Below are positions 5,237-58,272 of a stretch of DNA of 64,000 nt, piece after piece. The position numbers and the translations under genes are program-made. Positions within the stretch are counted from its first letter, which is position 1. Each line of letters opens with the position of its first letter. The stretch spans positions 1 through 64,000 of the forward strand of contig JAUCBJ010006897.1 of the NCBI GenBank assembly GCA_032718475.1, read 5' to 3'. The stretch comes from Nemertoderma westbladi (taxonomy: Eukaryota > Animalia > Xenacoelomorpha). Under the pieces are notes generated by a model. The model was given only the letters and a program-made list of their open reading frames with translations, did not search any database and was not told the origin of the DNA.

Positions 5237-7426
5237 TTAAAATTTCAATTCTCTACGGACCGAGCAGAAAAGTTGGAGGACTCGTGAATATTCATTAGCA
5301 TCTAGTGAATGAACCAGTAAACGTTCCGTGCCAGCAATCAGTTGAGGTTGATTAATCACGCAAAGTTTATGCTGATAATTGTATGCATGGATATGATCAT
5401 TTGCTGCTGAGGAAGGAATAAAACGGTTTGGACCAATTACTTTCATAAATCGCACCTCAACCAATGGGCCATTTGCATCTATGACTTTCTCTATACATCC
5501 AGGAATAAAGTTATCATCATAAATAGCAGCTATCCAGCTGCCCACAACAGGAACTTCAGATGTTTCTCGGATAGGATTAGAGTCTTGACTCTCTTCTGAG
5601 TTTTGACATTCTTCCGAATCCACTCCAATATCACTCCCTTGACTATTACCATTAGATGAGCTATAATCACAACAAGCAATCTCATTTATGCAATTGGCTA
5701 ATTCATAAAATATGAGTTTTTGATCTTTACGTATGACTTGATGGATTTTCAAAGTGCGATATATATAAACAGACTCGTCAATACTGAAATGTTCAACACA
5801 TGCATTAGGTATATACAGAATAGTAGGTTTCACAATACCATTTGCATAAGATGCAAAATGCTCTGCATCTCTAATGACCACTCGTCCGGACCTCACATGG
5901 TTATATGTTTGCACTTTTACAGTTGCGCCAATACCGTCATGAGGTCCTTTAAAGTGGCCTGCTTCCCCATATGTCCATGACTTGACTATGTCTGGCATAT
6001 CCATAGCAATTGCTTTAAATACATGTTTGCTACGAAACTGCCCTGAGCATCCATCACTCCAAACATGTATATCAGTAATGTTGGCATTCTTTTCTCGGAT
6101 ATGCCGCATAAGCTGTTTAATACAACTGAAAGCAAGGAACTTATCATGCTCAGTGCAGTTGGAAATGATGGCAACAGATTCTACAATTATACTTGAGTTA
6201 GTGCCTTCTACCATGGATAAATTATCACCAATATCACATTGAGTGCAGTTGGAGTCAGGATCAACAGGAACATATTCTGTAGATGTGCTAGGGCCATCTC
6301 CTCTGGATGAATTATTATCATCATTGGTGTTGCTATCAACAATACTTGATCGGGTGTAACAGGCTGCTGTAAATATACAAAAGTTTTCATGACCAAAATA
6401 GGCACTTTGGACCTCATGCCTTTGCTTATTATCGTAATTCTTTGCAAAATCAATGCTTATTATTGCTTCATTCGGATTTAATTTCGATTTTTGTTCTCTA
6501 AGGATGTTTAGTTGATGAAAAGCTCGATACTGATGTTGTATATAGTCATGAACTTGCTTATTAAGATCTTCAGCAACATCTTCCCCACATTGAATATATT
6601 CTCGTTTCTTAACAATTTTTTCATTGTCTGTTCTGGCCCATTGATAGTAACGAATCTCAGGTATACTTCTAATAACTTCAAAAAGAGGTTCCAAAATTTC
6701 AAAACCAGGGCAATCCTTACATTTAAATTCGCAGCAACTTCTATTTTTGAGAGAACAAACAATTTCACTCACAAACTCATTTTCATCAGGGTAAAATAGT
6801 TCATGGTTGCGAATATTTGTAACTGAGTTTAGGCCATTTAGTAACAGGGTAAGGTTTTCACACTTCTCGCATTTGCAATCATCTTCAGGCATTTTTCCAT
6901 TATAATATAAATGCTTCTTACCAGCTATTATGCGTTGTAGAAGAGCTTTATTGACCTTAATGTCAGGAACTTTTTCATTGGCTAGTGGAACTGTTTCCTC
7001 AAGGGTCCATAACATATAATGTCTAGGTTTATATTTTCTTTCACCATTCTCTTTCCCAACATATACCATATGTTGACGACCGGGACAACAGTACGATATA
7101 TCTGGTGATTCCAGAAATTCTATGACCCGATTTTCTTTCTCGGTTGTTATTCTGGAATGTTTACCCAGTGGCCGTCCTGGCTTTTTAAATAACATTCTTA
7201 CCTTGGCACCACGAAGTACTGTCTTTCGTGTTGCTGGAGACATACTTCCGATATAAGTGCTAATCGTCTCCATTCTTTTACTTGGCGATTTTGGAAGATG
7301 TTTTTTCAATCTATTTATTGACTTCCCTAAACTCTGCTTAGACTTAAATGCCCCAGAACTAGGTGGTGACAATGACCCAGAAGTAGTAGGAGTCAATGGA
7401 GGTTGAGTAGCTATAGTAAATGGCAA
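5237..7426 (-). CDS. Sola2 transposase, main exon (open frame of ~730 aa)
   Basis: Motifs IDFAKNY...HEVQSAYFG, WSDGCSGQFRS and EAGHFKGPHDGIGATVK fit the Sola2 DDD catalytic region. Cys clusters CKCEKCEN and CSLKNRSCCEFKCKDCP. No internal stops. Confidence 0.85.
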   Translation of the reverse strand: MPFTIATQPPLTPTTSGSLSPPSSGAFKSKQSLGKSINRLKKHLPKSPSKRMETISTYIGSMSPATRKTVLRGAKVRMLFKKPGRPLGKHSRITTEKENRVIEFLESPDISYCCPGRQHMVYVGKENGERKYKPRHYMLWTLEETVPLANEKVPDIKVNKALLQRIIAGKKHLYYNGKMPEDDCKCEKCENLTLLLNGLNSVTNIRNHELFYPDENEFVSEIVCSLKNRSCCEFKCKDCPGFEILEPLFEVIRSIPEIRYYQWARTDNEKIVKKREYIQCGEDVAEDLNKQVHDYIQHQYRAFHQLNILREQKSKLNPNEAIISIDFAKNYDNKQRHEVQSAYFGHENFCIFTAACYTRSSIVDSNTNDDNNSSRGDGPSTSTEYVPVDPDSNCTQCDIGDNLSMVEGTNSSIIVESVAIISNCTEHDKFLAFSCIKQLMRHIREKNANITDIHVWSDGCSGQFRSKHVFKAIAMDMPDIVKSWTYGEAGHFKGPHDGIGATVKVQTYNHVRSGRVVIRDAEHFASYANGIVKPTILYIPNACVEHFSIDESVYIYRTLKIHQVIRKDQKLIFYELANCINEIACCDYSSSNGNSQGSDIGVDSEECQNSEESQDSNPIRETSEVPVVGSWIAAIYDDNFIPGCIEKVIDANGPLVEVRFMKVIGPNRFIPSSAANDHIHAYNYQHKLCVINQPQLIAGTERLLVHSLDANEYSRVLQLFCSVRRELKF

Positions 7427-7808
7427 TATTGGTAATGGTCTCTGATTTTTTTATGTTAAATCAGTAATAAAAAATCTATCTAAATATATATATATATGGC
7501 ATGGAGTTCATAAAATTAGGTTCAAACAAAAAAAAATGTCTCTTGTTTTTATTCGAACAATATATTTTCAGTAAATTTACTTAATATTTTAGATTAATAA
7601 AATCAGGAGATACCATACAGATTAGAAACTTTCTTTGAACATGAACAGAACAATATTAATAACTTTCTTCAAATTATATTTTTTCTGATACTATTACAAC
7701 AGGTAATTAAAACAGGATAATAATTAAATTGTAAAATAACTAAGGAACAAAACAAAAATATGCCTTCATTCAAAATATTTCCTCTTCCTTTTAAAAATGC
7801 AGCAGGCT

Positions 7809-8012: not shown

Positions 8013-10277
8013 TTCTATAAGCCCAGATGGTGCAGACAGTTCCGAGTTTATTCGATGAGTTGATAGTAGAAATTAGATTATTAGTTGATAATGATATAAT
8101 AGGCCTATGGACAACTGGTAGGCCTACTTATTTTGAATGAATAACTTAGGCCTAATGTATTAATAAGTCAATTTAATTTTCAATTCAACACAGCAATTAA
8201 TCTATTTTTAGGAATTCAATTATGTATAAATAAAATAGCTGCACAGTATAATTAACATCTCAGCTTTAGTGGGATAAAAGTCATAATGAAGTTCAGGCTA
8301 TGCAAGGTACATGCAGTAATATCAAGTCTGATTTAGGTAGTTATACTATTATTTCTGTATTGTATGTCAATATGGTGCAGCCCAAGTCAAGCAGTCACAA
8401 TGAAAGCTGTTTTGAATTTCCCTCCTCTGGAATTTGGAATTTCCCATAACTGCAATGCTAATTACAAATGTATGTCTGAGTCAGCATGTAAAAGAGCCGT
8501 CACTTCTACATAATATATATAAGGTACTTCCGGACATTATGTGCTCTATACATTTAAACATATCATACAATCAGTAATAAGAGTATACATAAGATACTTC
8601 AACAGACCACACTATACACACCATGATATATATAATGCATGCAGGACACAGGTACACCATACAAATTATTAGAACAGAAATATTGTGCTTATGGTAATTT
8701 CACAATATGGTAATTAATTAGGTAACGGACGGAAATTAAATAGGTAACGGACGGAATAAAAGTTAGTCGAATTAAAAACAATATTTATTTTGCACCTAAA
8801 TGTTCAACTTCTTCCAGTTTTATTGTTCTAACAATAAATTAGAACTTACAAAAAACCTGGACTATTCTGTGCTACACTACTCCAATTAGGTTGAAAATTG
8901 TAACTCATGGTAACGGACGGAAGTAACGGACGGAACGAGTTTTGGAACTGCTGGCCATGCCTAAATACGTAACGAATTATGCCACAATCATTGAATTTGC
9001 CATTACTAATATTTCAATAAAATTTCTTGAAAAAAATTTTTGTTAATAATATTATTTATAACAAATATATCACACATTTTGCATTTATTGCCATTTTTTG
9101 TGTGAAAATTGAAAAAAATGTAAATTTTAGTACAGCTTGTAATTTGAGATAACTAAACAAAAACCAATAATTATTTTCAATTTTATAGACTTTCAAATGT
9201 AGTCTAATGGTATATACTACTAAAAATATGCAAAACGAAAGTTTATTTTTTACCACATTGGTTGACCATTTTGTGAAACAGGCTCTTAGGTGAATGTGGC
9301 TGGCCATTAAATCGGCCTCAACTACAGCAAGTCGTTAAGAGTTATTTGGATAAAACTAAAGAAGGCAATCCGTTTAGAAGTGGTGTTCCTGGGTATCATT
9401 GGATGAGATTATTTGAACGCCGATGGAAGACAGAACTATCTAAAAGGAAACCGGAATATGTCACTATTGCAAGAGCGAAGGGCCTGTGTCCTGAAGTACT
9501 CAATGAATTTTTCTCCTTAGTAGATAATCTAGTGAAGTCTCTCGGTATTGAAGAACTTCCTAATCGATTTTATAATCTAGACGAAGTTGGGCTAAATGTT
9601 GACCCGAAGGCTTCAAAGTACTTTTATAAAATGGGCTGTCGCGATGCGCAGTATGTTGTTCCTACTGAGGGGAAAACATCATTTACCGTATTATTCTGTG
9701 GAAATGCCTCTGGGACATACGTTCCCCCATATGTAGTATATAAAGCGAAAGCATTGGCGAGTATCACAGCAAGTTGGCTGAATGGAGGACCGCCTGGGAC
9801 TACCTACAACATCTCTAAAAGTGGATGGATGGAGGGTGAAACGTTTGAAGCTTGGTTCATTAATGGGTTCCTACCGTACATTAAACATAAAGCAAAGCCG
9901 GTTGTCCTATTTTATGATGGTCACAACTCGCATATCAGCTATGAACCTGCTTCTCAAGCTAAGAAACAGGGAGTCCACCTTATTGCCTTACCACCCCACT
10001 CCTCCAGTGCATTACAACCACTTGACGTCTCTGTCTACGGGCCAGCCAAGAAAGAGTGGAGGAAAATTCTTGTGAATTTTCTGCGAGAGAGTCGACTTGC
10101 CACAATAAAGAAGGAGATGTTTCCGACTTTGCTGAAACAATTGTTTATGAAGGCCTTTATCAACAGGCCAGACTGGCTTATCTGTGGCTTTCGAAGAGCT
10201 GGATTGTACCCTGTAAATCGTAATGCTGTACCGGCATCCAAAATCATGCTTTCCCAGGTCGTTTTACCAGATAATGA

Positions 10278-10450
10278 GTCCACTGGTTCTGAATCAACCA
10301 CTGACCTAGGCATAGTAGCTTCTCTTCCAACGCAATCCACTGGTTCTGGATCAACCACTGACCTAGGCATAGTAGCTTCTCTTCCAACGCAATCCACTGG
10401 TTCTGGATCAACCCCTGACCTAGGCATAGTAGCTTCTCTTCCAATGCAAT
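10278..10450 (+). repeat. 57-bp in-frame tandem repeat x3 inside the pogo transposase
   Basis: Encodes STGS(E/G)ST(T/P)DLGIVASLP(T/M)Q three times. Confidence 0.92.
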
Positions 10451-11225
10451 CTTCTGTTTCGTCTCTGCCATCGCCAATATTAGGCCTACTTGCAGAAGAT
10501 GATTCACTGGTACAACATGTTAGCTTTGGCTCTACAGAAGATCATAGCCCACTCTCTCCATCAACTACACTGCCCGCAGTTTGTGATACATTGGATGATA
10601 CTTTTATACTACCTGATTTAACTGAATTAGAAGTCGAAAATGAACAAAATATTTATACGCCTACTTGCAGTTCACCACGCAGCCCAAGTACAAATGTAAC
10701 ACAAAGTGATACTTCATTGGTATCATCCGCATCCCAGGCATCTACATCATCTATCTTATCACCTCACTCAGCAATGCGTCATGCTATACTAAGAGCCATT
10801 AGACCCGTGGCATCTAAAGATACAAAATTTGCGATAGATAATGCGAAACGAAAGAGGACAAGAGTGCAGAAGAAGCAGGGGGAAGTGTTAACATCTGATG
10901 TAGCACTTCATCGTCTAAATGAGGAACTCAAAGCACGGGAAGATAAAAAGAAAAGTAAGAAGAATAATCCTAAGGTTGCAAAGTCCAAGTCAAAGACAAC
11001 CACCCAGATTTCCACTACGAATACCAATGCGAATGAGATTGATCTTTCTATATGCTATGCTTGTATGGAGGTGGAACCACCAATCGAGGAAGATCTTGAA
11101 GATGATAATGTGAGTTGGGTGGCTTGCGATTCCTGTAACCGCTGGTATCATGAGTCCTGCCTTGATGATATAACTGACCCCTGCCTATTTTGTTCAATTG
11201 AATAAATATTTAGCTCAGTGCGATC

Positions 11226-13970: not shown

Positions 13971-16681
13971 AAAACAAAAAAAAGTTGTGCAAATCGGAAA
14001 ATTGTATGAATTCTGACTTTCATGAACTAGTGTTTTTAAGTGGTGGAAAGACAGACAAACAAACAGGTAGACAAGTGAACAGACCCCCCACCCCCTGGCA
14101 GCATGGTGATACATGTATTCGGGTTTTAGGCACCTTTCTATAATGTAAACTATAGATTTGTATAGCAAACAGACATAGGCAGAGACAAATTTATACTCTG
14201 TCCGGAAATTGGGCACCTGCCCAAATACCGGACAACCCAATCTTGTAAAAAAAAGTGCCCATTTGCGCCCATTAGATGGCGCTGGGCACTCAATGTTAAG
14301 ATTTTATTTTGATGTAGGATAATGTCCTGTACTGTTAGAATCATCTTTTGATTGGAATAAACTATGGTTGAGCTACAATAAAGGAAAAATCGAAATTCTG
14401 TCCGGAATTGGGGTACCCTACCCTACTGCTATTAGGTATTACCGGTCAGCCGGTACCGATACTGTATTATTATAGTCCTAGTATCAGAGTGTGTAGCGTA
14501 GCAGTAGCATACAGCAGTACATACAGTCAGTGTTTTAAGACTGATTTTCATATTCCGATATTACTGTATTATAATTCTGGATTACCGGTACTTGATTATG
14601 GCGAAATGTACCGGTACCGCTGGTGGTACCTCTAGCTCGGATTGGCCTACAGCACTTTTTCAATGTCGTGATGAACTTTGCACCTTTGATTATGTCAATG
14701 ACCTTTCTTTGAGGCAACTCTATGAAAGTTCAGAAGTTTGTCAATTGTCTATTTGGGAGTGCTGGAGTGGTGGGTAGCACACAAACTTGGTCCTGTGGTA
14801 ACACCAGAGTGCAGTGAATTAATCAAATTCGAATTAATAATCAGTTTATATCACCTGATCATATATTCTCAGAATTTTACTATACAGGCATATAAAAAGA
14901 CAGGCCTATGTGACAGGTAGACAGGCCTATGTTTACAAAGTACTTACGCTTACACCTAACTAAAATCAAAGCAATTAATTAATATATATAAATATAAATG
15001 CGGTTACAGTATGCTACCTGGGTTGCTGCCTTAGGCCTAAACAAATATGAAGAAAAGTGGTCCGATCGCGCATCGATCTACACATTGAGGCCATTAGCAG
15101 ATTAGCTATATATAAAATAATGCAATAACACAAACCCAGAACAGTAATAATGTACAGAATATTGTTGTTGGTTTGCTTATAGGCGGCACAGGCAGAACAT
15201 GTAACCAAATGATAGCCAAGAATTTAGTTTCAATCAATGAAGGCCGCTGGAAAAGCTATCTGCTGGTGAGTCATTAGTAGCAGAGTGGAATTATTTGGTG
15301 TAACCATCGAAATTCATAGGCTCTTCATGAAGGTAGAGAAGTTAACTAATATTGGTTAGATGTAATACAACAGGTTCTATAGGGAGATAGTATAGAACAC
15401 ATTAGTTTGGTAGGACAGCTGAGTTTGTGAGAGAGAGAGAGAGATGGGGGGGGGGGGGGGGGGGGTGTGAGACGGCTGTGGGTAGTAGTTATTCACTGAT
15501 TGTCAAAGGATTCGATGGTCCACTAGGATACAGTGCTTTAGATCCACAATAATTGTTTTTGTCCGTGGAATTTACTCATTATGTCCGCTGATTTTGACTT
15601 TTTATGTCCGCGGAAATTTCTACCGGTGTACCGGTAATTGGTAACTGGTAACAGTATATTGTAGGTATAAATAAAGCCTTAGAATTATACTGTATTATAC
15701 TACATTAGATTTGGATTAGAGGATTGGTGGTTCTGAGTTATCAACGATTGATTAATGTATCATAAGTAGTAATGATTTGATTTTAAGGATAGTATTTTTA
15801 TAAAAATATTTTAAAGAATTAGAAAAATTGGAATTAATGATATTATCTGTTATGTTGGATCAACTGTAAAAATTATCTGAAACTAATATACAGTACTACC
15901 AAAGTGAATCAATTTCACGAACCATTTAGGGCTTAAATCTCGTCTGATCGATATATTTTGGAGATACTTCATTAATTTTAAACACTACTCAATTGATAAT
16001 TATTGTAGCTGGACAGTGTATTGCAGCTATATCTTAATGACCTGTTGAAACAATAACTACTATCATCTTCGATGATAGATGATTTTGATTTATACCCATA
16101 GATAACGACGTATAATGCTTTTATTAATACATATTTTATTTCACTTCACATCCACTCTGGCCCTTTTAATACGCATATATTTCATTTAAATTTAATACGC
16201 ATATATTTTATCTCATTCCATATGACATCCAGTCTGTCTCATAATTATTAGCAATGCTCCTGTAATGGAATATTTCTTATCTATTATATTTTTAAATCTA
16301 ACATTAAAATACAGTAATAATTTTAATTCGGTGTATTTTAATGTACTTTATTTATTGACTCACATTTTAAAATATGTATGTTTTTTTTAGGGGGGAAACC
16401 CCATCCATAATACTAAAGTTAATTTGTCAGCATATATTATCTTTGTTCTAAGTTACAGTATGGTGTAAATTTATATAAATAAATAATAATAATATTACAT
16501 TAGTTATTATTTATAAATATAATGTAGAACTTCGATCTTCAAACAGGTGGAGCAGTTCCAACTGACAACTCCTCTAGTAACGATGGTAACAACTACAAAA
16601 CAAATATATTGAATAACTTATTTAAGGGAGTAAAGTGAATCTTTGGGCCAAAACGTCCGACAAACAAATCTTGCATTTCAT

Positions 16682-17162
16682 ACTACTAGGATCGGCATGC
16701 TGCATTGCAGCTGCATTTTTAAGAATGCTGTGCCGGCTTGTCAACAAAATTGCACCGCCACAACTCCCTATCACCCATGACATTTGCTAGATCATCCGCA
16801 TCTTTAAGGCCAGTGTCCTTTAAGATGCGTCTCAAGAAAGTCATGGGCTGTCCACCATGCTTATTCACTCCATGAGGCTGCCAAAGTACAAGATTATGCA
16901 CTGGCTGGTCCTCACGGCGAAAGCAATGTCCTGCAAAGCGGAGGCGATTTTGTTCTAGTGTCAAGCTTGGGGGAACCAATGAGACACCTCCAATGTTATA
17001 TAGTGTCTGGTTGGAGATGTGTGCATTGTACTTGACACAATGTACCCGGCGTAGCATTCTTGTGAATGTGCCATCCAGAGATTTGGTGTCCTCAGCAGTT
17101 AGAGCCCAGCATGGACTCCCGTAGAGGAGTACTGGAACTACTGCTGCTCTAAATAATCGGAC
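16682..17162 (-). mobile_element. 5'-truncated RTE-clade LINE insertion with target-site duplication
   Basis: Encodes LFRAAVVPVLLYGSPCWALT...LDGTFTRMLRRV...LRFAGHCFRR (C-terminus downstream of RTE reverse transcriptase). 3' tail (TAG)n. 12-bp TSD CTTGCATTTCAT at 16670-16681 and 17163-17174. Confidence 0.88.
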
Positions 17163-17570
17163 CTTGCATTTCATTCATTGGGCCGAAACGTCCTAGGCCA
17201 AAACGTCTTAGACCGAAACGTCTGTTACCCAGACTGAAGACAGGTAGGCCTACTTAAATCTAAGTGATTTAAAGAGTGTGGCTGCCGCTACCTTTCGTCA
17301 AATAAACAATGCAGGACAGGTCCAGGATGAGTGACAGCCGCGGTGTCCGCCAACCCCGGATGCCCCAACAGTGCAGTATCTATTAACCATAACTCTTCTT
17401 GACGCCGCTTAGAAATCTAACCAACCGTGATTTATTTTTGAACGGCTTTTCCACCAACCTGGCTATAGAATGTTGTTGGTTGCTACGGTATATGGCACTA
17501 ACATAGTATAGACTAATAGAAGCAGCAATGAGAATGCTAAGGGAATAAACATTCGAACAGATATTGAAAA

Positions 17571-17978
17571 ATGTTTCCGGATCCCAACGATATTACGAGA
17601 CATACAAACTGGAAGAAGGCCCAAGCGTTGGCAGCGCATTGGTGGAGAATCTGGGCCCAGGAGTACCTCATAACCCTCCAGACCAGGAGGAAGTGGAACA
17701 ACACCTACAGCAATGTCGAAGTTGGCGACATGGTACTAGTAAAAGAAGACCTTAAAGACTGCGTCCACTGGCCTGTGGCGCGAGTCGTGGCAATACAACC
17801 GAGTAAAGACGGACTTGCGAGGACTGTGACGATACGAACGGCAAAGGGCCACTACCAACGCCCTATCCAGAGGCTGTGCCTTCTCGAAGGCAATGACAGC
17901 GGTGACTCTACGAGAGGTGATAAGTTCCCTACTCAAGATCCTGCTGCAGACATTGGTGACAATTACAAATGCGTTTAA
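17571..17978 (+). pseudogene. C-terminal fragment of BEL/Pao pol (post-integrase DUF5641-like domain)
   Basis: WKKAQALAAHWWRIWAQEYLITLQTRRKW...VEVGDMVLVKED...WPVARVVAIQPSKDGLARTVTIRT...RPIQRLCLLE is the typical BEL pol ending. Confidence 0.92.
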
Positions 17979-18272
17979 ACCCTTCTCATCATGTTGACAA
18001 ACTCTTTTAAACTGTGATTTATCGACAATGAAAATGGACCCCCCTTAAACCAACTGTAACCACGCAATGGTATTTGTGTTTCCTCGTGTGTTATGTGGAG
18101 TCCAGCGTCACCCTGCAGATGTTTCGACTGACGCAGGGTCGTTTATGTATTGTTTACCCTGATTTTGGTCATCGGGACCAACGATATTGGATTATTGGAA
18201 ATGGTAAAGATTTGAAGTGGAATTCATTGTATTCATCGCAGTATGTTATGTTGTCCGTTGCGTGCGCAGTTC

Positions 18273-18675
18273 GGGGCGTAGGCGGTGTAACTAGTCCAGC
18301 TGTAGATCCCGGATTGCCGCGCAACACCCCCTCTATCCCGTTATTCTGGTGGGTCCATGGTGCATCCACATGACTTCGACGATAGAGGGTTTTATGTTTC
18401 TCAGTCGCGTTATTCTGGTGGGACCGTTGCGTGGATTTTGGGGCGTAGGCGGTGTAACTAGTCCAGCTGTAGATCCCAGAATGTTGCGTAACCCCATCCC
18501 ACATGACTTCGTCGACTGAGCTTTATGTTGTTGGGAGTGTTATTCTGGTGGGTCCCTGGTGCATCCACGTGACTTCACTTCCAGCGTCTTCATTGTCCGT
18601 TACGTGAGCAGTTTGGGGCGTAGGCGGTGTAACTAGCCCAGCTGTAGATCCCAGATTGCCGCGTAACACCCCTTC
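18273..18675. repeat. Three ~170-bp degenerate direct repeats between pol and the extra ORF
   Basis: GGGGCGTAGGCGGTGTAACTAG(T/C)CCAGCTGTAGATCCC at ~18273, ~18440 and ~18615. GTTATTCTGGTGGG also occurs three times. Confidence 0.85.
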
Positions 18676-19266
18676 CACGACAAAGATTTCCCAAAGAAGA
18701 TGATTGAATGTAGTTGGAAATGATGAAAAGGATCAGACAACTCTACTATAAACCTGAATGATGACGCGTATGATGATGAAAATGTAATGATGCGCACCCT
18801 GGTGCTGCGCTTATAACAAATGATGATAGCCGGGGGGCTATAACCCCAATGATGATGTGGAAATAAACAAAATTGAGAATAAATGGTGGAACTAAATGAT
18901 GTGGAAATGTGGAAATAAATGAAATGTGAAATAAATGGTGGAAATAAATGTGTTGAAATATGTTGAAATAAATGAAATGAGATGAAATAATAATGAGAAA
19001 TGAAAAAAGACAAAAAAAAGGTATAAAAAAGTCTAAAGAAAAGAATTGGAAAAAAGAAAGGACATAAAAAGTCATAAAAACTGGTTGGATATTAATGTAT
19101 AGTTATAGTAACTGTAAATGCTGAATGTATTAGCAATAAGATGATAGATGCCTATATAGCAATGTTATTTAATAAACTGAACTGAATTATTCTGCAATCA
19201 CTATAGTTTCAGACTTTCTGGACTTATAATTAACTGATCTAATTTGTAACGGATATAATCGTAAAT

Positions 19267-21216
19267 ATGGACCCAAATCGCCAAATTATCGGCGAATTAC
19301 GTAACACGATAGATCTACTGGAATATTCGCAACCCGGATCCCCTGACTTTGATACAAATTGGAGCACCCTGCTAAATGAGAACGTGCGAGTCGTTAAATT
19401 CACCGGGCGAGAGGGACCGGATTCCAAGAATCTACGAGCCCTCCGGTTAGCCGATGCTAGTACGAGACTGAAAAGAACTCGGAACGCAAAGGCAACCGGA
19501 GGGGACGATTCGTCGTTTTGGGAAACGTTCCGGCAAAGCGTCTACAGATCCCGATGTTTGATCTACGACAACGAGGGAAACGCGACGCCCACCTCGAAAG
19601 CGATTACGTTGGCGAGATGTCAAAGTTTCGTCGACGACAAGAGTACGTACCTCGCCCACTGGGGAAACCTGTCGGAGTGTACGGCGACGCTTCGAGAGGA
19701 ACGTATATCGACCATCCAAAATCGCGACGACTACCAAGAAAAATACGGGGCGAAAGAATACGGTCGATCCTTGGTCGTCGTCCTCGGAACCCTGGACGGT
19801 TTGGTATTGGTGTGTCGAATATTTCCGACACCCAGACAGGAAGTGCAGGCAGCCGGAGCGATCTGGTTGCTACCTCCGGAAATCCAAAAGATCCTCTTCG
19901 ACTTCGACGTCATTAAAATCGGGTCGGATATAAAGGCGGACGTCCGGAACGACTACGCGAACGCTCCTTCAGGAAGAAACCGACGAGACGACCTCAACGC
20001 CCTTAGCCATTGCGTCGACACTCAAACGCTACTAGCCTGGTTACGATTCGCCGAGTTCATGCGAGGATTCCAAGAGGTGAGACCGACGAAATCCGGGATC
20101 GGCTACCTCGCTGTGCTAAACGGCGGCATCGACTTCAAACCCCAGAAATTCCGGGATTATAATAAAATATATGGTGGATACCCGGGATTAGAAATAAAGA
20201 GCGAGCGAGAGGGTCGATGGAAGGACGTTGATCGGAAGTGGACGATACACCAAAGGTGGGAGAATCCCGATCGACGGAACTACGTCTACGTCGTTATGGA
20301 GTGCTACACCGTCGCTAAGTTTATCTGTAAAACTCTCGATAACCTTATTACGGCGGTTCCTCTTTCCTTCGTCGACTACGACTGGAACGAGGTTATAAAC
20401 CACGCGTTCAAAGCGGTCGAGAACATCACACCGGGAGAGACTAAAACACTCGCTGTTATCGATTCCTGGGACGAGAGCGGACCTTACGACATCCCTACGA
20501 TTACCGAACTTCTCGGTGCGGAGGAGCCTCTGATTTCTTCGGAAGGGGAAGAAATATGGCTAAATGAGGGTGTTCTACTCTCCACCCCGAAGCGACAACT
20601 CGAGCCGGAGGCCGCTTACCAACCGGCCGCCAAACGGGTTGCCTCCACCGAACCAACGACGGAAGCGGGCGTTTCCTCACCACTCGGCTTCGGTAGCCCT
20701 GCGAGGGAGTTGGTTACTACCTTTGCGTTAAACGACTTCGGCGATACGTGCCAAAGGTTATCCCCGTATCCTTTCCCGGGTGGCGAAGACTGGTCGTCGG
20801 AGATTCCGAGTACCAGCAATCAACGGACCCGCTCAGCGATATTGGTCGAGAAGGGCCCCAGCGCTGCGCCGACTCCCGACGATCTCCTCGGAATCCCTCC
20901 GTCGAAAACCCCGGCACCTCTTCGCCGACCAGCGGTGGCTACTACACCCTCCGTTCCTCAGGATCCTATGCGACTAACCCGTTGGTACGCCGAGCAAACC
21001 GAATGGATCCACCGCCAGAAACGGTCGTCCGAGTTGAGACCGACGGGACACAAAGAAGGTTATCGTAGCGAGGACCTACTACGCAAAAGCCCAGCCTTCC
21101 GCGGGCTACCGACCACCGCGAATATTCCAGAAGAGCGACCGACGACTCGAGTATTACGTCGGCGTCCCGATTCCGATATTCCCCGGTCGAGAGATGCAAT
21201 TGGAGGTGTGCGGTGA
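19267..21216 (+). CDS. DEDDy (WRN/EXD2/mut-7-like) 3'-5' exonuclease-domain protein carried by the BEL element
   Basis: ExoI-like CLIYDNEG (~19555-19578), LPPEIQKILFDFDVIKIGSDIKAD (ExoII), CVDTQTL, SGIGYLAVLNGGIDFKP and ExoIII-like YVVMEC (20287-20304). A Pro/Ser-rich linker follows. The ORF is 649 aa without stops. Confidence 0.72.
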   Translation: MDPNRQIIGELRNTIDLLEYSQPGSPDFDTNWSTLLNENVRVVKFTGREGPDSKNLRALRLADASTRLKRTRNAKATGGDDSSFWETFRQSVYRSRCLIYDNEGNATPTSKAITLARCQSFVDDKSTYLAHWGNLSECTATLREERISTIQNRDDYQEKYGAKEYGRSLVVVLGTLDGLVLVCRIFPTPRQEVQAAGAIWLLPPEIQKILFDFDVIKIGSDIKADVRNDYANAPSGRNRRDDLNALSHCVDTQTLLAWLRFAEFMRGFQEVRPTKSGIGYLAVLNGGIDFKPQKFRDYNKIYGGYPGLEIKSEREGRWKDVDRKWTIHQRWENPDRRNYVYVVMECYTVAKFICKTLDNLITAVPLSFVDYDWNEVINHAFKAVENITPGETKTLAVIDSWDESGPYDIPTITELLGAEEPLISSEGEEIWLNEGVLLSTPKRQLEPEAAYQPAAKRVASTEPTTEAGVSSPLGFGSPARELVTTFALNDFGDTCQRLSPYPFPGGEDWSSEIPSTSNQRTRSAILVEKGPSAAPTPDDLLGIPPSKTPAPLRRPAVATTPSVPQDPMRLTRWYAEQTEWIHRQKRSSELRPTGHKEGYRSEDLLRKSPAFRGLPTTANIPEERPTTRVLRRRPDSDIPRSRDAIGGVR

Positions 21217-21868
21217 CTGTGGTTCGGAGCAGTGCCCACGCGGTAGAAGGAATCGGGTTACCGATTCGTGCCTCCAGCTCCTCGGGATACTCTATTGCCC
21301 ATACTGCGCGACATCGGGTCACGACGTTTCCGTCTGTCCGATCCTATATAACCTCTGCACCACGTGCGGTTTCCGTGGACATTCCTCTAGCCCCCGCTGC
21401 TATATCAAATGTCCTACCAAAGACGTTACCGCTATGGGAAATATGGTCATGTTTGAAACATATGCAAACAGCCACATAAAGACCAAGGTTCGGAGAAACG
21501 CTCGGAATATCGCGCAGGAGATGGCGTGCGGGTATTTCTCCTTCCCGGAACGCCTCCACACGACGGCCACGCTGCCTTTCCATTACGTGGATTTGTTGCT
21601 GAGCGCTGGATTATTTGGCCCATTCGAAGTCATTAGACGCTTATACTCGTATAAAGAGGAGTTCGGTGACGGAGAGTGGTTCCTCGAGGCTCGCAACTAC
21701 GAGTTGGAACGACGAACCAATATGATCCCGATGCCATCGAAAGGAAGAGCCGCCAGGAGACAAGCCGAAGCGTTGCTCACGATGGATGTTGACGCTCCTC
21801 TACCAGCTATTGCGATCGACGAGAGCCGACGGGCGAAGAGGCGAAAGGCGTATCAGAGAAAGAAATAG
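21038..21868 (+). CDS. Zinc-knuckle (CCHC) ORF; probable frameshifted continuation of the exonuclease ORF
   Basis: Contains CPYCATSGHDVSVC (CX2CX4HX4C), CTTCGFRGHSSSPRC and CGDCGSEQC. The frame is open from 21038 (after TGA at 21035-21037), well before the first ATG at 21194, and overlaps the upstream ORF by ~180 nt. Confidence 0.75.
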   Translation, partial: DRRDTKKVIVARTYYAKAQPSAGYRPPRIFQKSDRRLEYYVGVPIPIFPGREMQLEVCGDCGSEQCPRGRRNRVTDSCLQLLGILYCPYCATSGHDVSVCPILYNLCTTCGFRGHSSSPRCYIKCPTKDVTAMGNMVMFETYANSHIKTKVRRNARNIAQEMACGYFSFPERLHTTATLPFHYVDLLLSAGLFGPFEVIRRLYSYKEEFGDGEWFLEARNYELERRTNMIPMPSKGRAARRQAEALLTMDVDAPLPAIAIDESRRAKRRKAYQRKK

Positions 21869-22032
21869 TGGATCGGGATATTCCAGGAACATTTATCGAA
21901 CATTTATTTTTATACATTTATATATAAACTCTAGGCCAAATTAATTAAAACTATGCAATATTAAATTTGGGTTTTTTATATTGGGAATGACCTACGCAAA
22001 CTCAATCTACCGACAGACTTCACGAAGGTCAT

Positions 22033-22042
22033 TGGGGGGGAC
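22033..22042 (+). other. Polypurine tract
   Basis: TGGGGGGGAC lies immediately before the TGTT LTR start, the usual BEL/Pao arrangement. Confidence 0.85.
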
Positions 22043-22656
22043 TGTTCGCGGTATTTCAACTTTCCATAAAATATGTTGAATATTTTTTGTATTGATTTAA
22101 AATGATTATTCCGATATTACTACTGGGTGCGGGACCATGGGTTTTGGGCACATTCTATAAACTGGGGGCGATTTATGGGCGAACTTTGGGGCGACTTACA
22201 GGGTACGGGACTAATTTCATGTTTATAAGGGCCAACTTCCTGCTGCCTGTAGAGGTGGATTTGGTAACGCGCCAGGCCTAAAGGACAAGGACTGCCCTTA
22301 GCGGTCCCTGGCCAACAGCAGTTATTACGAGCCTGAAAAGGACATCGGAACGCCAGCTGCTTGTGTCAGGGACTTGCGACGGGAAACGACACGACAGACC
22401 CCTAGCCAAGCCGTACTGGTTCTCGATGATCGTTCCCTTCGGGGTTCGTGAGGGGTGGTACGGATACGCGACAGAGTCTACCGACTGGACCGACCCTTAG
22501 CCAAGCCATGCTGGTTCTCGATGATCAATCCCTTCGGGGTTCGGGAGGGGTGGAACGGACACGCGACAGGGTCGACCGACACCGACACTACGGCATCAAG
22601 ACTAGGACCGAGGGAAAATCTGGGGAACATTAGTTAGGCTAAAATCTGAGCGAACA
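22043..22656 (+). repeat. 3' LTR (614 bp) of the BEL/Pao element
   Basis: Starts TGTTCGC and ends GCGAACA (7-bp terminal inverted repeat). TATA-like TTCTATAAA near 22154. Internal ~50-bp duplication at ~22398 and ~22493. Confidence 0.88.
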
Positions 22657-23829
22657 GTGGGTAATTAAATAATATACTGTAGGGATTTATATTGTCGTGT
22701 ATAATTATTGTGAATATTTGGTGTATATTGATTTGGGGAAGCCCAAAATTATTCTCAATCAGGATTGTACATTGTTACAGGATTCTAACAGGATTAACTA
22801 CATTAAAGAATATATCCAACCAATGCAGCTTTTTCTCAACTGCAATCTTGCATCTAAGAAATTCCTCCTTCTCCACAATCAATATCCGGTGACTGGCCGG
22901 GACTCCGTGGTCTGTAAAGCCCCGCCTCCAGCATCGGCGTTTTTCCCCCCTGGTGTCGGGATAACGGCAACACCTAGTCAGTTTACCTTTCACCACTGAT
23001 TGTAAAAGATGGTTACTATGGAAACTATTATAAGGTATTGGTAGTTTGTGGGATAATGGTTTGAAAAATACACCGGTATTAATGAGTCCATTATTGGGGT
23101 TGTGTTTAAGGTTTAGGTCTAGGAAGACTGTATTCGAGTTGGAAAAATCAAAAGTAAAACCAAAGTATTGCTACTATAGTAATAATAGTACTATAGTAAT
23201 TGCCATATTTAATTTATTTTATTTATTTTATTTAATTGCCTACTTTATTTAACCCTTTGCATACTGATTCAAAAATAAAGTGTCCTGCGAGAATCGCTAT
23301 ATTTTCACAGGTGTTATTTTCGAACTAAGTAAAACCTATATATAATACTTTAGTGCATGAAGCTATGGTAGACCAAAAGGAACATATTTTGATAAATTTT
23401 TCTGGGCCATTGCCCTTTGGTTGACATCAAATGTTTGACGTACTAGGTATGTCATGCAGCGCCCTTACATGACATACTTAGTATGTATATCAGAGCCCTT
23501 GCATGACATACATAGTATGTATATTAGTGCTCTTGCATGATATACTAGGTATGCATATCAGTCCTCTTGTATGACATACTTGAGCGCATTCCGATGTCTC
23601 TGATACTACTGTAATACCCCATGTTGTTAGATCAAAAACTAAGGAGAAAATTGCATTATTTTGAATATAATATATTCAAAATAAATATAATATATATAAT
23701 ATATAGCCAACTGAGCCTATCCCAACATATAATATGATAATAATATGATATATTATCAAATGAGTGTCATAAAATAAAACAATACAATTATAAAAAGCCA
23801 TATATTTAACTCAAAAGTATACTAACAAT

Positions 23830-26800
23830 CTGAGGCCGGACAGACAGATGGTCGGACTGTGTAGCCGCGCGACTAGGACGGATTGTCCCAGTAGATCCGG
23901 TGCTACAGAGATCAGAAACTTCGGACATAGAGTCCCCGATATCATCCTGTAGCACTGATGGTGTTTGTTTCCTCATACACGAAATTTCCGGTTAAAATTA
24001 AATTTTGAAAATTAACATTAAATAAATTGAAATCAAAAAATCAACAATACTGTTAATTTTATAGATATGAGATAATGGTGCGGTAATAAAAAATGCCCCA
24101 AAAGAGCGTGAATGGCCCCATACTAGGTATTTATTTTACTAATTGGAATATCAGGATGGTAAATAACTCGCTCGGAATTAAGCCATTTGTTTTGTAATCA
24201 GTTATATAGTAATTAGCAACATAAACTACATAGTAATGTAACCGCATATAGACGAACGCAATATTTATATATATTATAGAAATATATTTAGTGTTCAAAT
24301 TGAATAAGATTTTATTTCTATCAACGGGACTGTGATTGTAATTTCCGCAGGGGCCCCAAGTTATTCGGAACTACTGGATAGGAGTCTATATATATCCAAT
24401 CTATATGCATATCTCGCAATATAATTCAGCTAACTCACCATCCGTACTGGGTCATTCTGGCGGCCGTGCTGGGCAGCACTGCTACCGATTCCTACGTCAA
24501 CGTCTACCATTTCGACGTCCTCTCTAAGTAATCCCTCTCTCTCTCTTTCTATGAGAATACCTTCGTCCATGGTTTGAGTTGTTATATCTATGAGAACGTG
24601 GTATTTTCTCATGACGCATTCTCTGGCGTGGTACTTTTTCTTGCCGCAACGCCCCTGACAGTACGAACAAATACGGCATGGCATCCCTTACGTTTGCGGG
24701 CTTTCTTGAACTGAAAAAAAATAATTTAATGAGTTTTAATTAAATTATTACTTTATGTTTTGTCCCTATATTAATACTGTACTGGTAATGAAAAAAAAGG
24801 ACAGTAACTTTATTTGTTTTACCGAAACTAATTTCTAAAGTAATTTCAGTTACAAGATAAAAAGAAGATGAATTAATAGGTAAATATATAATATATCTCA
24901 CAATCTGGGGGCGGCAATAAGGACGGCTGGACTGGATTGGATCCGCTGCTCTACTTCGCATAGAATCCACGGATCCAAGACTACATCCGAACCTTCGGAC
25001 ATCGATTCTCCTATCTGCGCTATGCGCAGATATTCATTATGCGCGTCGTCTAGAACCGATATGAGTTGTTCCTTCCTGCAGGACGTATCCTGTGCAAAAT
25101 GGTAATAAAGAAATAAATAATGCCGGTACGAGTGAATATATATCTTATTAAATTACAATTACAAAACTATAAAGGAATAAAATAATATACATATTATATT
25201 TAATTGAACATAAGAGACCGGGTATTAAAAACTATAGAGTCTTGCTATTACGTAACCGAGAATCCCTTTATGAACGGCCCAACCATATTTATATTAATAT
25301 TATATTATAAACGTATAAACTTACATCTGGCGGCTGAGGAGCCGAATGGCCCGACACAGTGGGGAGGACAAGCTCAGATACAGCGGTGAAAATCGCTGTT
25401 GCAACCGAAATCTGATCCTCCTCTGTTACAGCAATAGCTTCCTGCAGGACCTAAACAATAATAACATAACAGTAGATAACTACAACGGAGATAAATAACC
25501 AGCAACCCCTTAGTAATATTAGCAGTAGAAGCTCAATGATATCAGCCCTAATATACATATGGTAATTACGTTTCAATAAAATTAATATATAATACTGTAC
25601 CTTAAGATTGTATGAGACATTAAGGCAAATCCGTTAAATTTAATTATTAAATGGTGATAATAAAAATAATAAATATTTTATAAAATAAACAGATAGAAAT
25701 AACATGCCGTAGGGCCTACCGTTATACAAACACTGTATACTCTACCGGAATAGACGGAGTGGGTGGAAAAATTGCATTATGCAAATAGTCGGGGTGGCTG
25801 GAATAAACGTTGTGGGTTGAAAATGTAACATACTTACTTAACATACAGTATACAGTAGGCATACAGGTACAGCAGTACCTACGGCTACCGGTGGTATACT
25901 CGGTACACGGTTTTTGTTTTCTTTCACTTTCAACTCTCAATTATTATGAGAACAAACGTTTATTTACTCATAATAAAAAATGTACTAAATTTTAGAAAAA
26001 ATTAATAGTCGGGGGGTGACATTTTATATGGGATAGTCTACTACTAACCATCGGTTCTGACTCAGTCACGCGGCCGGACTGGGTCGAAATCGACCTCGGA
26101 ACGAACGCGACGTATCGGTCGCCGTCCACTCCGATGTGTATCGCCCCACCTCGTCCCCTTGGGGGGGGGGGGGGGGGGGGGGGGCAGTAACAACTTGGCG
26201 CGGTTCGGTGCTGCGCCCGATGGACCGTGATCTCCATCTCTTCCATATCTCGTATCGCCTCTAGATTGACGTCGTTATACTGGCAATTATCAGACGTCAA
26301 TGAACGTAAATAAGCGGCGAATGATTGCGGCCCTCCAGTACGGAAGTGCCACTGCGGCCGGGAATACTTGGCCGTTCTCAGCGACATGTAGTGCGCCACG
26401 TGCTGCTTAAGATTTGTCCAGGTTCTGGGCTTCGAACTCGTATTCCTCTCCCCTTATATCCGCTTCTCTCTCCGCTGCCTCCCTCCTTTCTCTCCTCGCG
26501 ACCTCCTCCAGTCTCCTCTCCTCGACTCTATCCGCTTCCAACTTCTTCCACCTCTTGTACGGTGTGTCCACCTCTCTGTCCACTAGGTGTCGGCTATCGT
26601 AGTATACCGACTCGCCCTTCAGCCCCTGGTGGTCTGCAAGACCTTCAATGGCCACCTTAACCCTATTAAACCCGGGGGGGGGTCAATATGACCCTCCCCG
26701 TGGTTTTTTTATTATAATTCTGAAACAAACGCAGTTGGGAATCTGAAATTTTATGACTTTTCCTAAAAATCTATTGTCTTCCTAGTAGTGAAAACCGTTT

Positions 26801-28340
26801 TCAAAAATATTGGGTACTTTTCGAGTTATAGCACCATTTTTTAACCCTACTTTTGGCACTTTTTTTGAGACGTTTTTTGAAAATTACATTTCATTAAATA
26901 TGAATTGTAACATCTCTATTTATTATTTACACAGGTTTTTTGGTGTTAGAAATTTGATGGAATTCATATAAATTGATTTAGAAATTTCAAACTTGTTTTT
27001 TTCGGTGGGTGCCAAATTTTGGTGCCAGCACCAAATTTTGAAATAAGTCAATTTTGTAAATTGATCTTTTGAAACTTGTTTTTTACGCAATTGGGGTTTT
27101 TTGGGTTTCTGGATTCGATGAAATATATACAAGTTGCACCAAGCGTATCAAACTTGTATTTTTCGGTGCTGTGTGCAAATTTTGGTGCTAGCACGAAATT
27201 TTGAAAATCCATTCAATAGATAAAATTGCTTGTGACAACTTATTTCTTGCGTTTTAGAGGTTTATGGCTGTTCTGAATTCAATGGAAAATATAATTATCG
27301 AACTAGACATCTCAAACTTGTATTTTTCGGATGTGGGTGCAAAATGTGGTGCTAGCACCAAATTTTGAAAACCATCAAATATATCAATTGATTGTGTCAC
27401 TTTGTTTCTTGCGATATAAGGGTTTGTGATGGTTCTGAATTCAATGGAATCAGTAAAAATGTCATAAGACTTCTCAAACTTGTATTTTTCGCCGGTGGGT
27501 GAAAATTGTTGTGCCAGCACCAAATTTTGGAAAATATGCAAATTGATAAGTAGATAGTATCACCTTGTTTCTTGCGTTATACGGGTTTAGGAGGGTCCTG
27601 AATCCGATGGAATCAATAAAAACAGCACTGGACATCGCAAACTTGTACTTTTTGGTGATGGGTACGAAATTTGGTGCTAGCACCAAAATTTGCCAACAAA
27701 CGCCGAAAAATACAAGTAGCAATGATCTGGCATATTAGAAATGTATTCCATTAGAATCAGCGCCCTCGAAAACCTGATAATGTGAATTTATAGCATCGTA
27801 TAAGTGAATTAAAAATTTTGTGTTCTAACTGAAAAGTGCTGGTTACTTGTTTTTTTCATTTTTTCCTACGCAGAGAGGACTAAACAGCCATTTATAGTAA
27901 TCATATCATTTTTTAATATTTTCCAATGTATTTTGCACCCTAGAAAACCTGTATTGAAAAATAATTAGCCGAAAATGTAACTTTCAAATTTGGTGAAAAT
28001 TGTGCACTACTTGTAATTTTTGTGCTGCAATATAACCACCCCAGTACATTTTTTCGAAATTTTTTTTTTTCGGTCGGATCCAGACAAGTGATACCTACGT
28101 ACAAACAAAAAATCAGACATTTTTGTAAATGTTTGTAGATTTTAGAGGGGGGGGGTCAATATGACCCCCTCCCGGTATTTGTACAACATTTTATAGCCCG
28201 GTACTAATAGGGTTAAAGGCTCTCCTGTGATTCAGAGGTGCTCCTGATAGTAGAAACGCCGTTGGCTCTCTTCCGATAACGTTTCTCTCCTCATATAGAA
28301 TCGCAGTGGAACTTCCAAGCACTTTGCTTAAGTCCGACAT
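23830..28340 (-). pseudogene. Multi-exon gene with a degenerate OTU-like domain, split by a piggyBac-type element
   Basis: ATG at 28340. Removing the TTAA insert joins ...NHRRAFK-VAIEGLAD in frame. After a frameshift near 26410 it reads LKQHVAHYMS...SFAAYLRSLTSDNCQYNDVNLEAIRDMEEMEITVH...IHIGVDGDRYVAFVP, which resembles an OTU helical core and final strands. Further GC-richer exon-like blocks lie at ~25325-25450, ~24900-25090, ~24435-24712 and ~23830-23975. Confidence 0.5.
26661..28212. mobile_element. Non-autonomous piggyBac-type element (1552 bp)
   Basis: TTAA at 26657-26660 and 28213-28216, ends CCCTATTA...TAATAGGG, internal ~120-bp degenerate repeats (TGGTGCTAGCACCAAAATTT). A second, inverted copy lies at 51257-53663. 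Confidence 0.92.
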
Positions 28341-35215: not shown

Positions 35216-35319
35216 CTAGAGTATATCTACAGTTATATAAAGTAACTTGTAAATGGACCAGTAGACTTGTAAATAATCTTGTACTGAAGTACGCAGTCTC
35301 ATGGAGTGAATACGCATAG

Positions 35320-35497
35320 TGGACAGCCCATGACTTTCTTGAGGCGCATCTCAAAGGACACTGGCCTTGAAGATGCGGATGATCTAGCAAATGTCATGGG
35401 TAATAGGGATTTGTGGCGTTGCAATTTTGTGGACATGCCGGCACAGCATTCTTAAAATGCACCTGCAATGAAGCGTGCCGATCCTAGTAGTAGTAGT
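35320..35497 (+). mobile_element. Short RTE LINE 3' end with (TAG)n tail
   Basis: GGACAGCCCATGACTTTCTTGAG...GCCGATCCTAGTAGTAGTAG is the reverse complement of the 3' end at 16682. Confidence 0.85.
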
Positions 35498-57611: not shown

Positions 57612-58272
57612 TCAAGACAATTTTGTGAGATCATTAAGTCGATCAATTTCTCTAGACTGTTCTTTTAGAGGTTTATACTTCATTGTAAATTTCCGACTCA
57701 ACTCTATTAGAAGGTGAAGGCCACGCAAAGATTTTACACGTGATAATGCAACATATGCCCCCCTGTCCATTGAAGGAGCTCCAGCCGGATTCACCCCAGT
57801 CTCTATATCTATTATAATGGCTTCCAAGGTAAGACCTTGCACATTGTAAACAGTTAGAGCATACGCTGGACTTATGGGGATTTGCTTTAAATTGACAGAG
57901 AAGGTAAATGATTTTGTTACCTTGATTCTAACAGTTTGTTTGGAAAAAGTTAAAGGAAAACATCCTAAACGTACGATCTCGAACTCAACTGTACATTTTT
58001 GAAAGATAGGTTCGATAATTATGAATTCGGGAACACGAGATGCGCGTTTCACAATTGTAGAGCTGCCTGGAGCATAGAATTCATCAATAAATGTTGTATC
58101 CTTTGGGAATTGAACGCCCTTCACTCTGCCAATGGTTCCATTTGCTATCCCTATTTCAACGGCAATGTTTTGAATTACAATAATTGGCATATCATAAAAT
58201 ATATCAATAAGCAGTGGTAGGCCTTCGCATTGGTCATCGCGCATGTACTGGAGAAGTTTCTTTTCAATGTTT
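57612..58272 (-). pseudogene. PIF1-family (Helitron-type) SF1B helicase, C-terminal fragment
   Basis: MPIIVIQNIAVEIGIANGTIGRV, QIPISPAYALTVYNVQGLTL and AYVALSRVKSL correspond to PIF1 motifs IV-VI. The 5' part is replaced by the 19-bp satellite. Confidence 0.88.

Follow-up and report, generated by a model that had tools for sequence, protein, structure and literature searches.

The DNA analyzed here, a stretch of 64,000 nucleotides from the xenacoelomorph animal Nemertoderma westbladi (GenBank assembly GCA_032718475.1, contig JAUCBJ010006897.1, positions 1 to 64,000 of the forward strand; the whole stretch is referred to as the window), carries the 3' part of a long terminal repeat (LTR) retrotransposon that is likely of the BEL/Pao type and that contains a third gene in the position of env, between pol and the 3' LTR. 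By profile comparison, the product of this third gene belongs to the DEDDy/PF01612 group of 3'-5' exonuclease-like proteins, and it very probably continues into a set of CCHC-type zinc knuckles within the same chain. The third gene is regular cargo of a multi-copy LTR family and is under purifying selection across copies. The reading of these data that we favor, though by no means firmly, is a 5'-truncated BEL/Pao-like element with a selected DEDDy-knuckle protein that would trim RNA, most likely host silencing or surveillance RNAs.

The exonuclease-like and knuckle domains of the third gene

The first frame of the third gene was originally predicted to encode a DEDDy nuclease of the WRN/EXD2/mut-7 type on the basis of six motifs, all of which are present (at amino acids (aa) 99, 202, 250, 276, 287 and 341). 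The catalytic set of the window protein comprises D101 and E103 in ExoI, which align with the D-x-E motif of RNase D, D225 in ExoII, which aligns with the ExoII Asp of RNase D, and Y341 together with E345 in ExoIII, resulting in the acids D-E-D-E. Approximately 50 extra residues are located directly after ExoI. The assignment of ExoI to IYDNE, as made in the original prediction, was confirmed with a 20-column block profile built from three homologs, which picks aa 84-103 with a score of 20.7 compared to -1.3 for the runner-up and which was not equalled in any of 1000 shuffles. An alternative ExoI near aa 141-155, placed there by the MAFFT alignments A1 and A2 and making the protein look dead, was overturned by this block-profile test; alignment A2 began downstream of the true ExoI, resulting in weaker searches and a weaker fold built from it.

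A phmmer search of 1.84 billion representatives returned three matches (P0001, P0002 and P0003) at approximately 31% identity, all of them single-member ENA clusters. For the four-sequence profile it was shown by hhalign that it matches a set of 40 PF01612 proteins with a probability of 91.8 (P 7e-7, score 49, 119 columns), compared to a maximum score of 24 in 20 column shuffles; this set covers 40 of 150 listed PF01612 places in 61 bacterial genomes, picked by frame length. The three homologs taken without the window protein match the PF01612 set with a probability of 94.6, and the probabilities are lower for subsets, i.e., 51-53 for RNase D-like sets and 5 for five Pol I domains. The alignment to RNase D covers 152 columns and reaches from ExoI to ExoIII. 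Moreover, the Atlas places aa 80-400 with PF01612 clusters at 0.92, with 156 shared features compared to 170 typical of same-family matches. EXD2 is the top PDB sequence match, below significance (E 0.89 and 0.47). The predicted nuclease type thereby stands as a profile match to PF01612, with a Glu instead of the Asp as ExoIII acid. Catalytic activity is predicted from these residues with slightly more weight for than against it, the uncertainty being due to the Glu at the fourth acidic position.

A homolog search with the single protein over 7,995 candidates found no match, longer proteins searched by profile yielded only members of the query, and locus searches in JGI metagenomes and IMG/VR gave no match to the gene. 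By tblastn there was no match in phages and plasmids and a weak match in one of the 61 bacterial genomes. An IMG/VR match obtained with A5 lies in the 3'-5' exonuclease region of a frame named by eye as a phage-type family A DNA polymerase. In the Atlas, clusters of 213-214 aa, mostly from Basidiomycota where known, score 0.93 versus the exonuclease domain.

The original prediction also held that the third gene does not look like env, and this view is upheld: in the third-gene frames no Pfam match to a viral fusogen was found, and a hydrophobicity scan, made without a dedicated signal-peptide predictor, revealed neither signal peptide nor membrane anchor, suggesting that the product is not an envelope protein. 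Just one 19-mer is strongly hydrophobic (2.08, aa 168-186); it lies inside the protein and aligns with the beta-hairpin after ExoI, and the maximum in the knuckle frame is 1.24.

The first frame is overlapped by a second frame of 276 aa (21038-21868, plus strand) containing two CCHC-type knuckles. The original prediction listed the two as separate open reading frames. Both frames and both knuckles are present, but in the homolog P0001 they are fused into one chain of 648 aa with three knuckles, to which the first frame matches by BLASTP with 6e-16 and the second with 5e-11. Each of three listed variant sites close to the end of the first frame is non-silent when read in that frame and silent when read in the knuckle frame. 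One of the three is the stop codon of the first frame, at which 81-100% of the depth differs in four of four runs. Given the fused homolog, this pattern of silent changes and the stop codon that is not shared, it is highly probable that the two frames are one exonuclease-linker-knuckle gene broken in this copy. The combination of exonuclease and C-terminal CCHC knuckles in one chain is thus seen directly in P0001 and is suggested by these data for the window gene. As a lead only, the best Atlas match of P0001 is a PF01612 plus zf-CCHC cluster (0.86). In the overlap neither a slippery heptamer nor any of four +1 motifs for programmed frameshifting was found. The knuckle profile matches retroviral nucleocapsid structures with E 6e-5, whereas the matches to the structures of the Trypanosoma brucei RNase D, TbRND, are weak (E 2.1 and 9.5).

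Copy number, selection and element structure

Six public sequencing runs overlap the window stretch, none of which is on record as RNA, the RNA status of X6 being a guess. Runs X1, X3, X4 and X6 were mapped on positions 15500-24500 and X1 to X4 on 17400-23100; X1 and X2 represent one sample, and the run that covers the stretch best may derive from the very source of the window. In X1-X3 the summed depths of the pol tail, the third gene and the knuckle domain range over 12,000-39,000, compared to approximately 20-145 in the downstream flank, and single contigs near the gene start have a depth of 4,500-5,600 compared to 12-13 for flank contigs; in X4 the excess is only about ten-fold. The family would comprise roughly a few hundred copies, keeping in mind that contig depth is not copy number. 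Since the depth of the third gene is about equal to that of the pol tail in three of four runs, the third gene is regular cargo of the family. Among 15 of 22 joints listed there is no deep joint skipping the third gene, and among the listed joints and loose ends none is deep at its borders; contigs cross the gene start. The original claim that the extra gene lies inside the element and is not a one-off insertion is thereby supported. Some joints do skip the greater part of the gene, with depths of 26-45 in X1 and 96 in X4; as their sides are shorter than 30 letters, they look like chance similarity or single deleted copies.

The variant data comprise the 40 best-supported of 662 and the 40 best-supported of 292 entries, with 38 distinct sites in the gene. 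Within aa 150-400, 11 of 11 listed variants are silent compared to 28% expected (about 1e-6), which points to conservation of the frame across copies, a property that the original prediction proposed to check. Elsewhere silent sites account for three of six in aa 1-149, six of 13 in the linker and six of eight in the knuckle frame. None of the listed variants falls on the five catalytic codons, the lists being partial. At the two non-silent sites of the knuckle frame and at two sites of the pol tail, the window differs from almost all of the remaining depth, and such window-only differences fit decay of this copy.

Upstream of the third gene, a frame of 136 aa (17568-17978, plus strand) matches DUF5641 over 93 of 94 positions. 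We take the DUF5641 region to be the closing part of BEL/Pao pol. The originally proposed pol C-terminus is therefore present, with the BEL identity judged from this pol tail and the link of DUF5641 to BEL. All element parts lie on one strand in the canonical order of pol tail, third gene, polypurine tract and LTR. The window holds one LTR, which probably has TG...CA ends and a length within the 0.2-1.2 kb given for Belpaoviridae LTRs (PMC8742986), and the 8 purines in front of it compare to the approximately 10-nt polypurine tract of BEL/Pao elements. The BEL/Pao Gag carries a triple Cys-His box, and a primer-binding site follows the 5' LTR (PMC554778). Other marks of BEL/Pao are the phylogenetic position of the reverse transcriptase, the domain order PR-RT-RH-IN and a long DD(~49)E spacing. 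Judged from the 136-aa pol tail, the element is likely an LTR retrotransposon of the BEL/Pao type. The element is not complete in the window, in which no second (5') LTR was found by BLASTN and none of the 10 frames of at least 170 aa resembles gag or reverse transcriptase. Upstream of approximately 17590 the depth falls, an X4 contig departs from the window sequence at 17570, and the copy is 5'-truncated near this position. A locus search in IMG/VR found no related locus.

The polypurine tract and the start of the LTR with TGT at 22043 are as originally predicted, whereas its end is probably not at 22656 but near 22972. This is because depth at repeat level (32,000-73,000) persists over 22748-22938 and reaches to approximately 22970, an X6 contig (22498-22763) crosses 22656, ATTAAA hexamers occur only at 22664 and 22802 and hence beyond 22656, and an X1 flank contig matches the window only from 22963, after 264 unlike letters. 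The 3' end is thus probably the AACA at 22969-22972, as judged from one LTR copy, and the 7-bp inverted repeat at 22650-22656, although it exists, probably lies within the LTR. The LTR furthermore contains a TATA-like sequence at 22156 and a 95-nt internal tandem duplication (22387-22576); the predicted folding of the LTR repeats and of the LTR end is no better than that of shuffles.

The spacer between pol tail and third gene contains three repeated units with the same long predicted hairpin. All 73 of 73 cells are paired and three pairs are changed on both sides; 42 of 500 shuffles reach as high, although a shuffle control has little power when only three sequences are compared. Between units 1 and 3 there are seven differences, four of which form two compensatory pairs and three of which are unpaired, so that none breaks a pair (simulation P approximately 0.003). 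No Rfam match was found at E 1. As judged from their predicted folding, the hairpins are a possible packaging, export or protein-binding signal. Similarly, the AT-rich stretch ahead of the third gene is, from its composition, a possible internal promoter or splice acceptor; a strict search for the splice-acceptor pattern in this stretch gave no match.

Table 1. Parts of the element in the window, in 5' to 3' order
Feature	Position	Strand	Basis
pol 3' tail, integrase C-terminal region, DUF5641	17571..17978	+	Pfam PF18701, E 1e-30
Spacer between pol tail and third gene, 1.3 kb			
Three 83-nt units with the same long predicted hairpin	18251-18333, 18418-18500, 18593-18675	+	folding z -3.3, -1.9, -4.2
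AT-rich stretch ahead of third gene	18850..19266	+	sequence, short repeats
Third gene, first frame, 649 aa, ATG to stop: N-terminal segment, DEDDy-like domain, acidic and Pro/Ser/Thr-rich linker	19267..21216	+	open reading frame
DEDDy 3'-5' exonuclease-like domain, aa 81-368	19507..20370	+	profile comparisons, motif placement
Overlap zone with frame break of this copy	21038..21216	+	variants, fused homolog P0001
Knuckle domain: two CCHC-type knuckles that are intact (21296-21337, 21356-21400), a degenerate one, extension conserved with P0001, basic tail	21209..21868	+	
Polypurine tract, 8 purines	22034..22041	+	sequence
3' LTR, TGT...AACA, probably 930 bp	22043..22972	+	read depth, contigs, sequence

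Other features of the window

Outside the element, the window contains a frame of 642 aa (9277-11205, plus strand) with a DDE_1 transposase match (E 2e-22) and a C-terminal PHD finger, presumably pogo/Tigger-like. An open frame of 737 aa on the minus strand (5237-7450) has no significant Pfam match and shows Cys-rich and acidic motifs that, judged by eye, suggest a DNA transposase. A very high-copy fragment resembling the 3' end of a long interspersed nuclear element is located on the minus strand at 16681-17174, with a depth of more than one million in X1 and X3 and a related piece at approximately 35293-35457. Moreover, there is an inverted duplicate of approximately 1.5 kb (26667-28154 and 51319-52805, 89-96% identity), a 19-bp satellite at approximately 58130-62000 with about 194 overlapping matches and, on the minus strand at 57612-58277, a C-terminal helicase fragment (UvrD_C_2, E 2e-4), which we assume to be Helitron/Pif1-like.

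Relation to known systems and alternative readings

DEDDy genes in retroelements, mentioned in the original prediction, are indeed documented for bdelloid rotifers, as Juno, Vesta and the Terminons carry DEDDy third genes with a DEED motif and, in the available excerpts, no demonstrated activity (PMC5408684, PMC6431247). The element described here resembles Juno and Vesta, LTR retrotransposons in which the place of env is likewise taken by a gene for a DEDDy-type 3'-5' exonuclease without transmembrane segments. However, according to the excerpts of PMC5408684, the rotifer elements have a dUTPase and GPY/F-type integrase ends, are named neither BEL nor Pao there, show DEED instead of D-E-D-E (a comparison by description, not by sequence) and have an ORF3 without a reported knuckle. 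Furthermore, variation in the rotifer DEDDy ORF3 looked neutral and its function was left open (PMC5408684, in the same excerpts). BEL/Pao elements with env genes, such as Roo, Tas and the mosquito elements with a Chuviridae glycoprotein, share the third-gene position, the purine tract and the LTR length, but their third genes as described in the available text are fusogen-like (PMC8742986, PMC13524379). Neither a BEL/Pao survey (PMC3118150) nor a 2026 envelope survey (PMC13524379) uses the term exonuclease in the available portions, and no BEL/Pao or knuckle-fused DEDDy third gene was found in the literature searched, the coverage of which is incomplete, with Repbase and supplements outside it. 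The DEDDy capture is apparently independent of that in the rotifer elements and took place in another superfamily.

The nearest characterised layout is that of TbRND, in which a DEDD exonuclease is followed by tandem CCHC knuckles. In TbRND the knuckles supply RNA binding and raise the cleavage of U-rich 3' ends (PMC7797062, available excerpts). However, TbRND is a cellular mitochondrial enzyme with four knuckles, a linker of 28 aa and a canonical DEDD set (PMC7797062, same excerpts), whereas the protein described here has two intact knuckles and a degenerate one, a linker of approximately 250 aa and a mobile element as its carrier. The analogy is a functional one only. With EXD2, the WRN exonuclease and mut-7 (Nibbler) the third-gene protein shares the order and spacing of ExoI to ExoIII and the segment LP-x(6)-L-x-D-x(2)-V-x-K-x-G, but it differs in a family-specific insertion between GxDFKP and the ExoIII helix, in the ExoIII Glu and in the fused knuckles, and the match to EXD2 is below significance. 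Egalitarian and EXD1 are DEDDy-fold proteins described, in the parts of the sources available, as working through RNA binding; both are host genes without knuckles, and EXD1 is without the acids retained here. For Egalitarian the available text reports that the catalytic residues of the DEDDy domain are dispensable for function (bioRxiv 10.1101/2025.08.03.668247).

In the mechanism that we propose, the knuckles would grip single-stranded RNA and the DEDDy domain would trim the gripped RNA from its 3' end, RNA being suggested as the substrate by analogy with TbRND. The targets would most likely be small silencing RNAs of the host, precursors of these RNAs, or surveillance tails. It is tentative, and in our estimate a little below an even chance, that the enzyme acts on silencing or decay RNAs of the host instead of nucleic acid of the element itself. 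Mature PIWI-interacting RNAs (piRNAs) are 2'-O-methylated and PIWI-bound, which would make them resistant to such an enzyme, and for this reason precursors or tails are the likelier targets. In a bolder version, which seems rather unlikely to us, a BEL/Pao lineage common to distant hosts would carry a TbRND-like enzyme whose zinc knuckles catch small RNAs rich in U, precursors of piRNAs or uridine tails for degradation, acting as a suppressor that enabled hundreds of copies, with the hairpins as its partner in cis.

Next to the resistance of mature piRNAs, several observations weigh against a selected, RNA-trimming protein encoded by this element. ExoIII reads YxxxE (Y341-x3-E345) in the window protein, P0001 and P0003 and has an Asp only in P0002; P0003 moreover has a Glu at ExoII, the acidic sets being D-E-D-E in P0001, D-E-D-D in P0002 and D-E-E-E in P0003, and MAFFT gives an alternative register of ExoIII with a two-residue gap. 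Searches with the window protein alone gave nothing significant in Pfam, NCBIfam or the PDB sequences. The two AlphaFold models are too poor (predicted local distance difference test (pLDDT) scores of 32 and 38), and on these unusable models Foldseek found no match at E 0.001 and VIA-align reached a best Z of 3.5 with EXD2 at noise level, both of which are uninformative on the fold. The indel variant of the overlap is present in four of four runs and is the majority in X2, X3 and X4, but it accounts for 2% in X1, and for this reason split copies may be common. The silent-site bias derives from partial variant lists and is not a full ratio of non-synonymous to synonymous substitution rates (dN/dS). 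Finally, no single contig reaches from pol tail to LTR, their linkage through the third gene being inferred from even depth and overlapping contigs, and in X4, and only there, the depth of the spacer (17973-18927) and of the LTR (22175-22556) exceeds that of the coding parts by a factor of approximately 3-18, for which a non-autonomous derivative or the internal repeats might be responsible.

An alternative that is unlikely but deserves to be taken seriously is an RNA-binding pseudo- or weak nuclease similar to EXD1 or Egalitarian, acting in transport, packaging or protection of the element's own RNA, possibly via the spacer hairpins. Three of the four members of the family have Glu as the fourth acid, preceded by bulky residues where small ones are usual, the insertion of approximately 50 aa follows straight after ExoI, and the three fully paired hairpins (73/73 cells) are located just upstream. 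There is precedent in Egalitarian, which binds stem-loops via its DEDDy domain (bioRxiv 10.1101/2025.08.03.668247, available text), and in EXD1 as an inactive RNA binder (PMC4712191, available text), and a benefit to the element's own RNA is a simpler account of purifying selection than a shared anti-silencing benefit. However, at approximately 30% identity all four members retain the D-x-E of ExoI, the Tyr of ExoIII and acidic residues at each of the four positions, whereas EXD1 lost its catalytic residues (PMC4712191, available text), and nothing ties the protein to the hairpins. We consider it improbable that an active enzyme, brought by nucleocapsid-like knuckles, serves replication by trimming transfer RNA primers or the 3' ends of RNA or complementary DNA or by proofreading in the particle. 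The match of the knuckle profile to retroviral nucleocapsid structures and the basic C-terminal tail would agree with this, relatives of the WRN/EXD2 type act on DNA too, and 3'-end processing of element RNA is suggested in the available excerpts of the rotifer paper (both PMC5408684). Yet gag and pol suffice for most BEL/Pao elements (PMC8742986), and the copies in the runs go down to 85% identity and give no hint of proofreading, although this is no test of it.

An origin of the third gene and the LTR from a non-BEL or chimeric element, with the DUF5641 tail joined only in part of the family, is very improbable. It would account for the missing gag, protease and reverse transcriptase in the window, for the lack of a contig spanning pol tail to LTR and for the over-represented spacer and LTR in X4, but it is opposed by three runs in which the depth is even all the way from pol tail to LTR, by contigs crossing the gene start, by the listed joints and loose ends, none of which is deep at the borders of the gene, and by the common strand and canonical order of the parts. 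A captured fragment of a host gene in neutral drift is scarcely credible: this copy is broken and has private-looking amino-acid changes, but the 11 silent variants of 11 listed in aa 150-400 speak against drift, an intron is absent, no close host homolog was found in the homolog searches, and the homolog P0001 has the same layout at approximately 30% identity.

Third genes of LTR retrotransposons are usually presumed to be env, and in the searchable literature nuclease cargo has so far been described only for elements of bdelloid rotifers. The family described here adds purifying selection in a high-copy family and a further predicted RNA-binding module. If the anti-silencing reading is true, the element would be an animal case of RNA silencing being suppressed by an enzyme that a retrotransposon encodes. 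As a soluble protein with a clear prediction for activity and substrate, the third-gene product provides a handle on the question of whether retrotransposons of animals encode enzymes of their own that counter silencing or process RNA.

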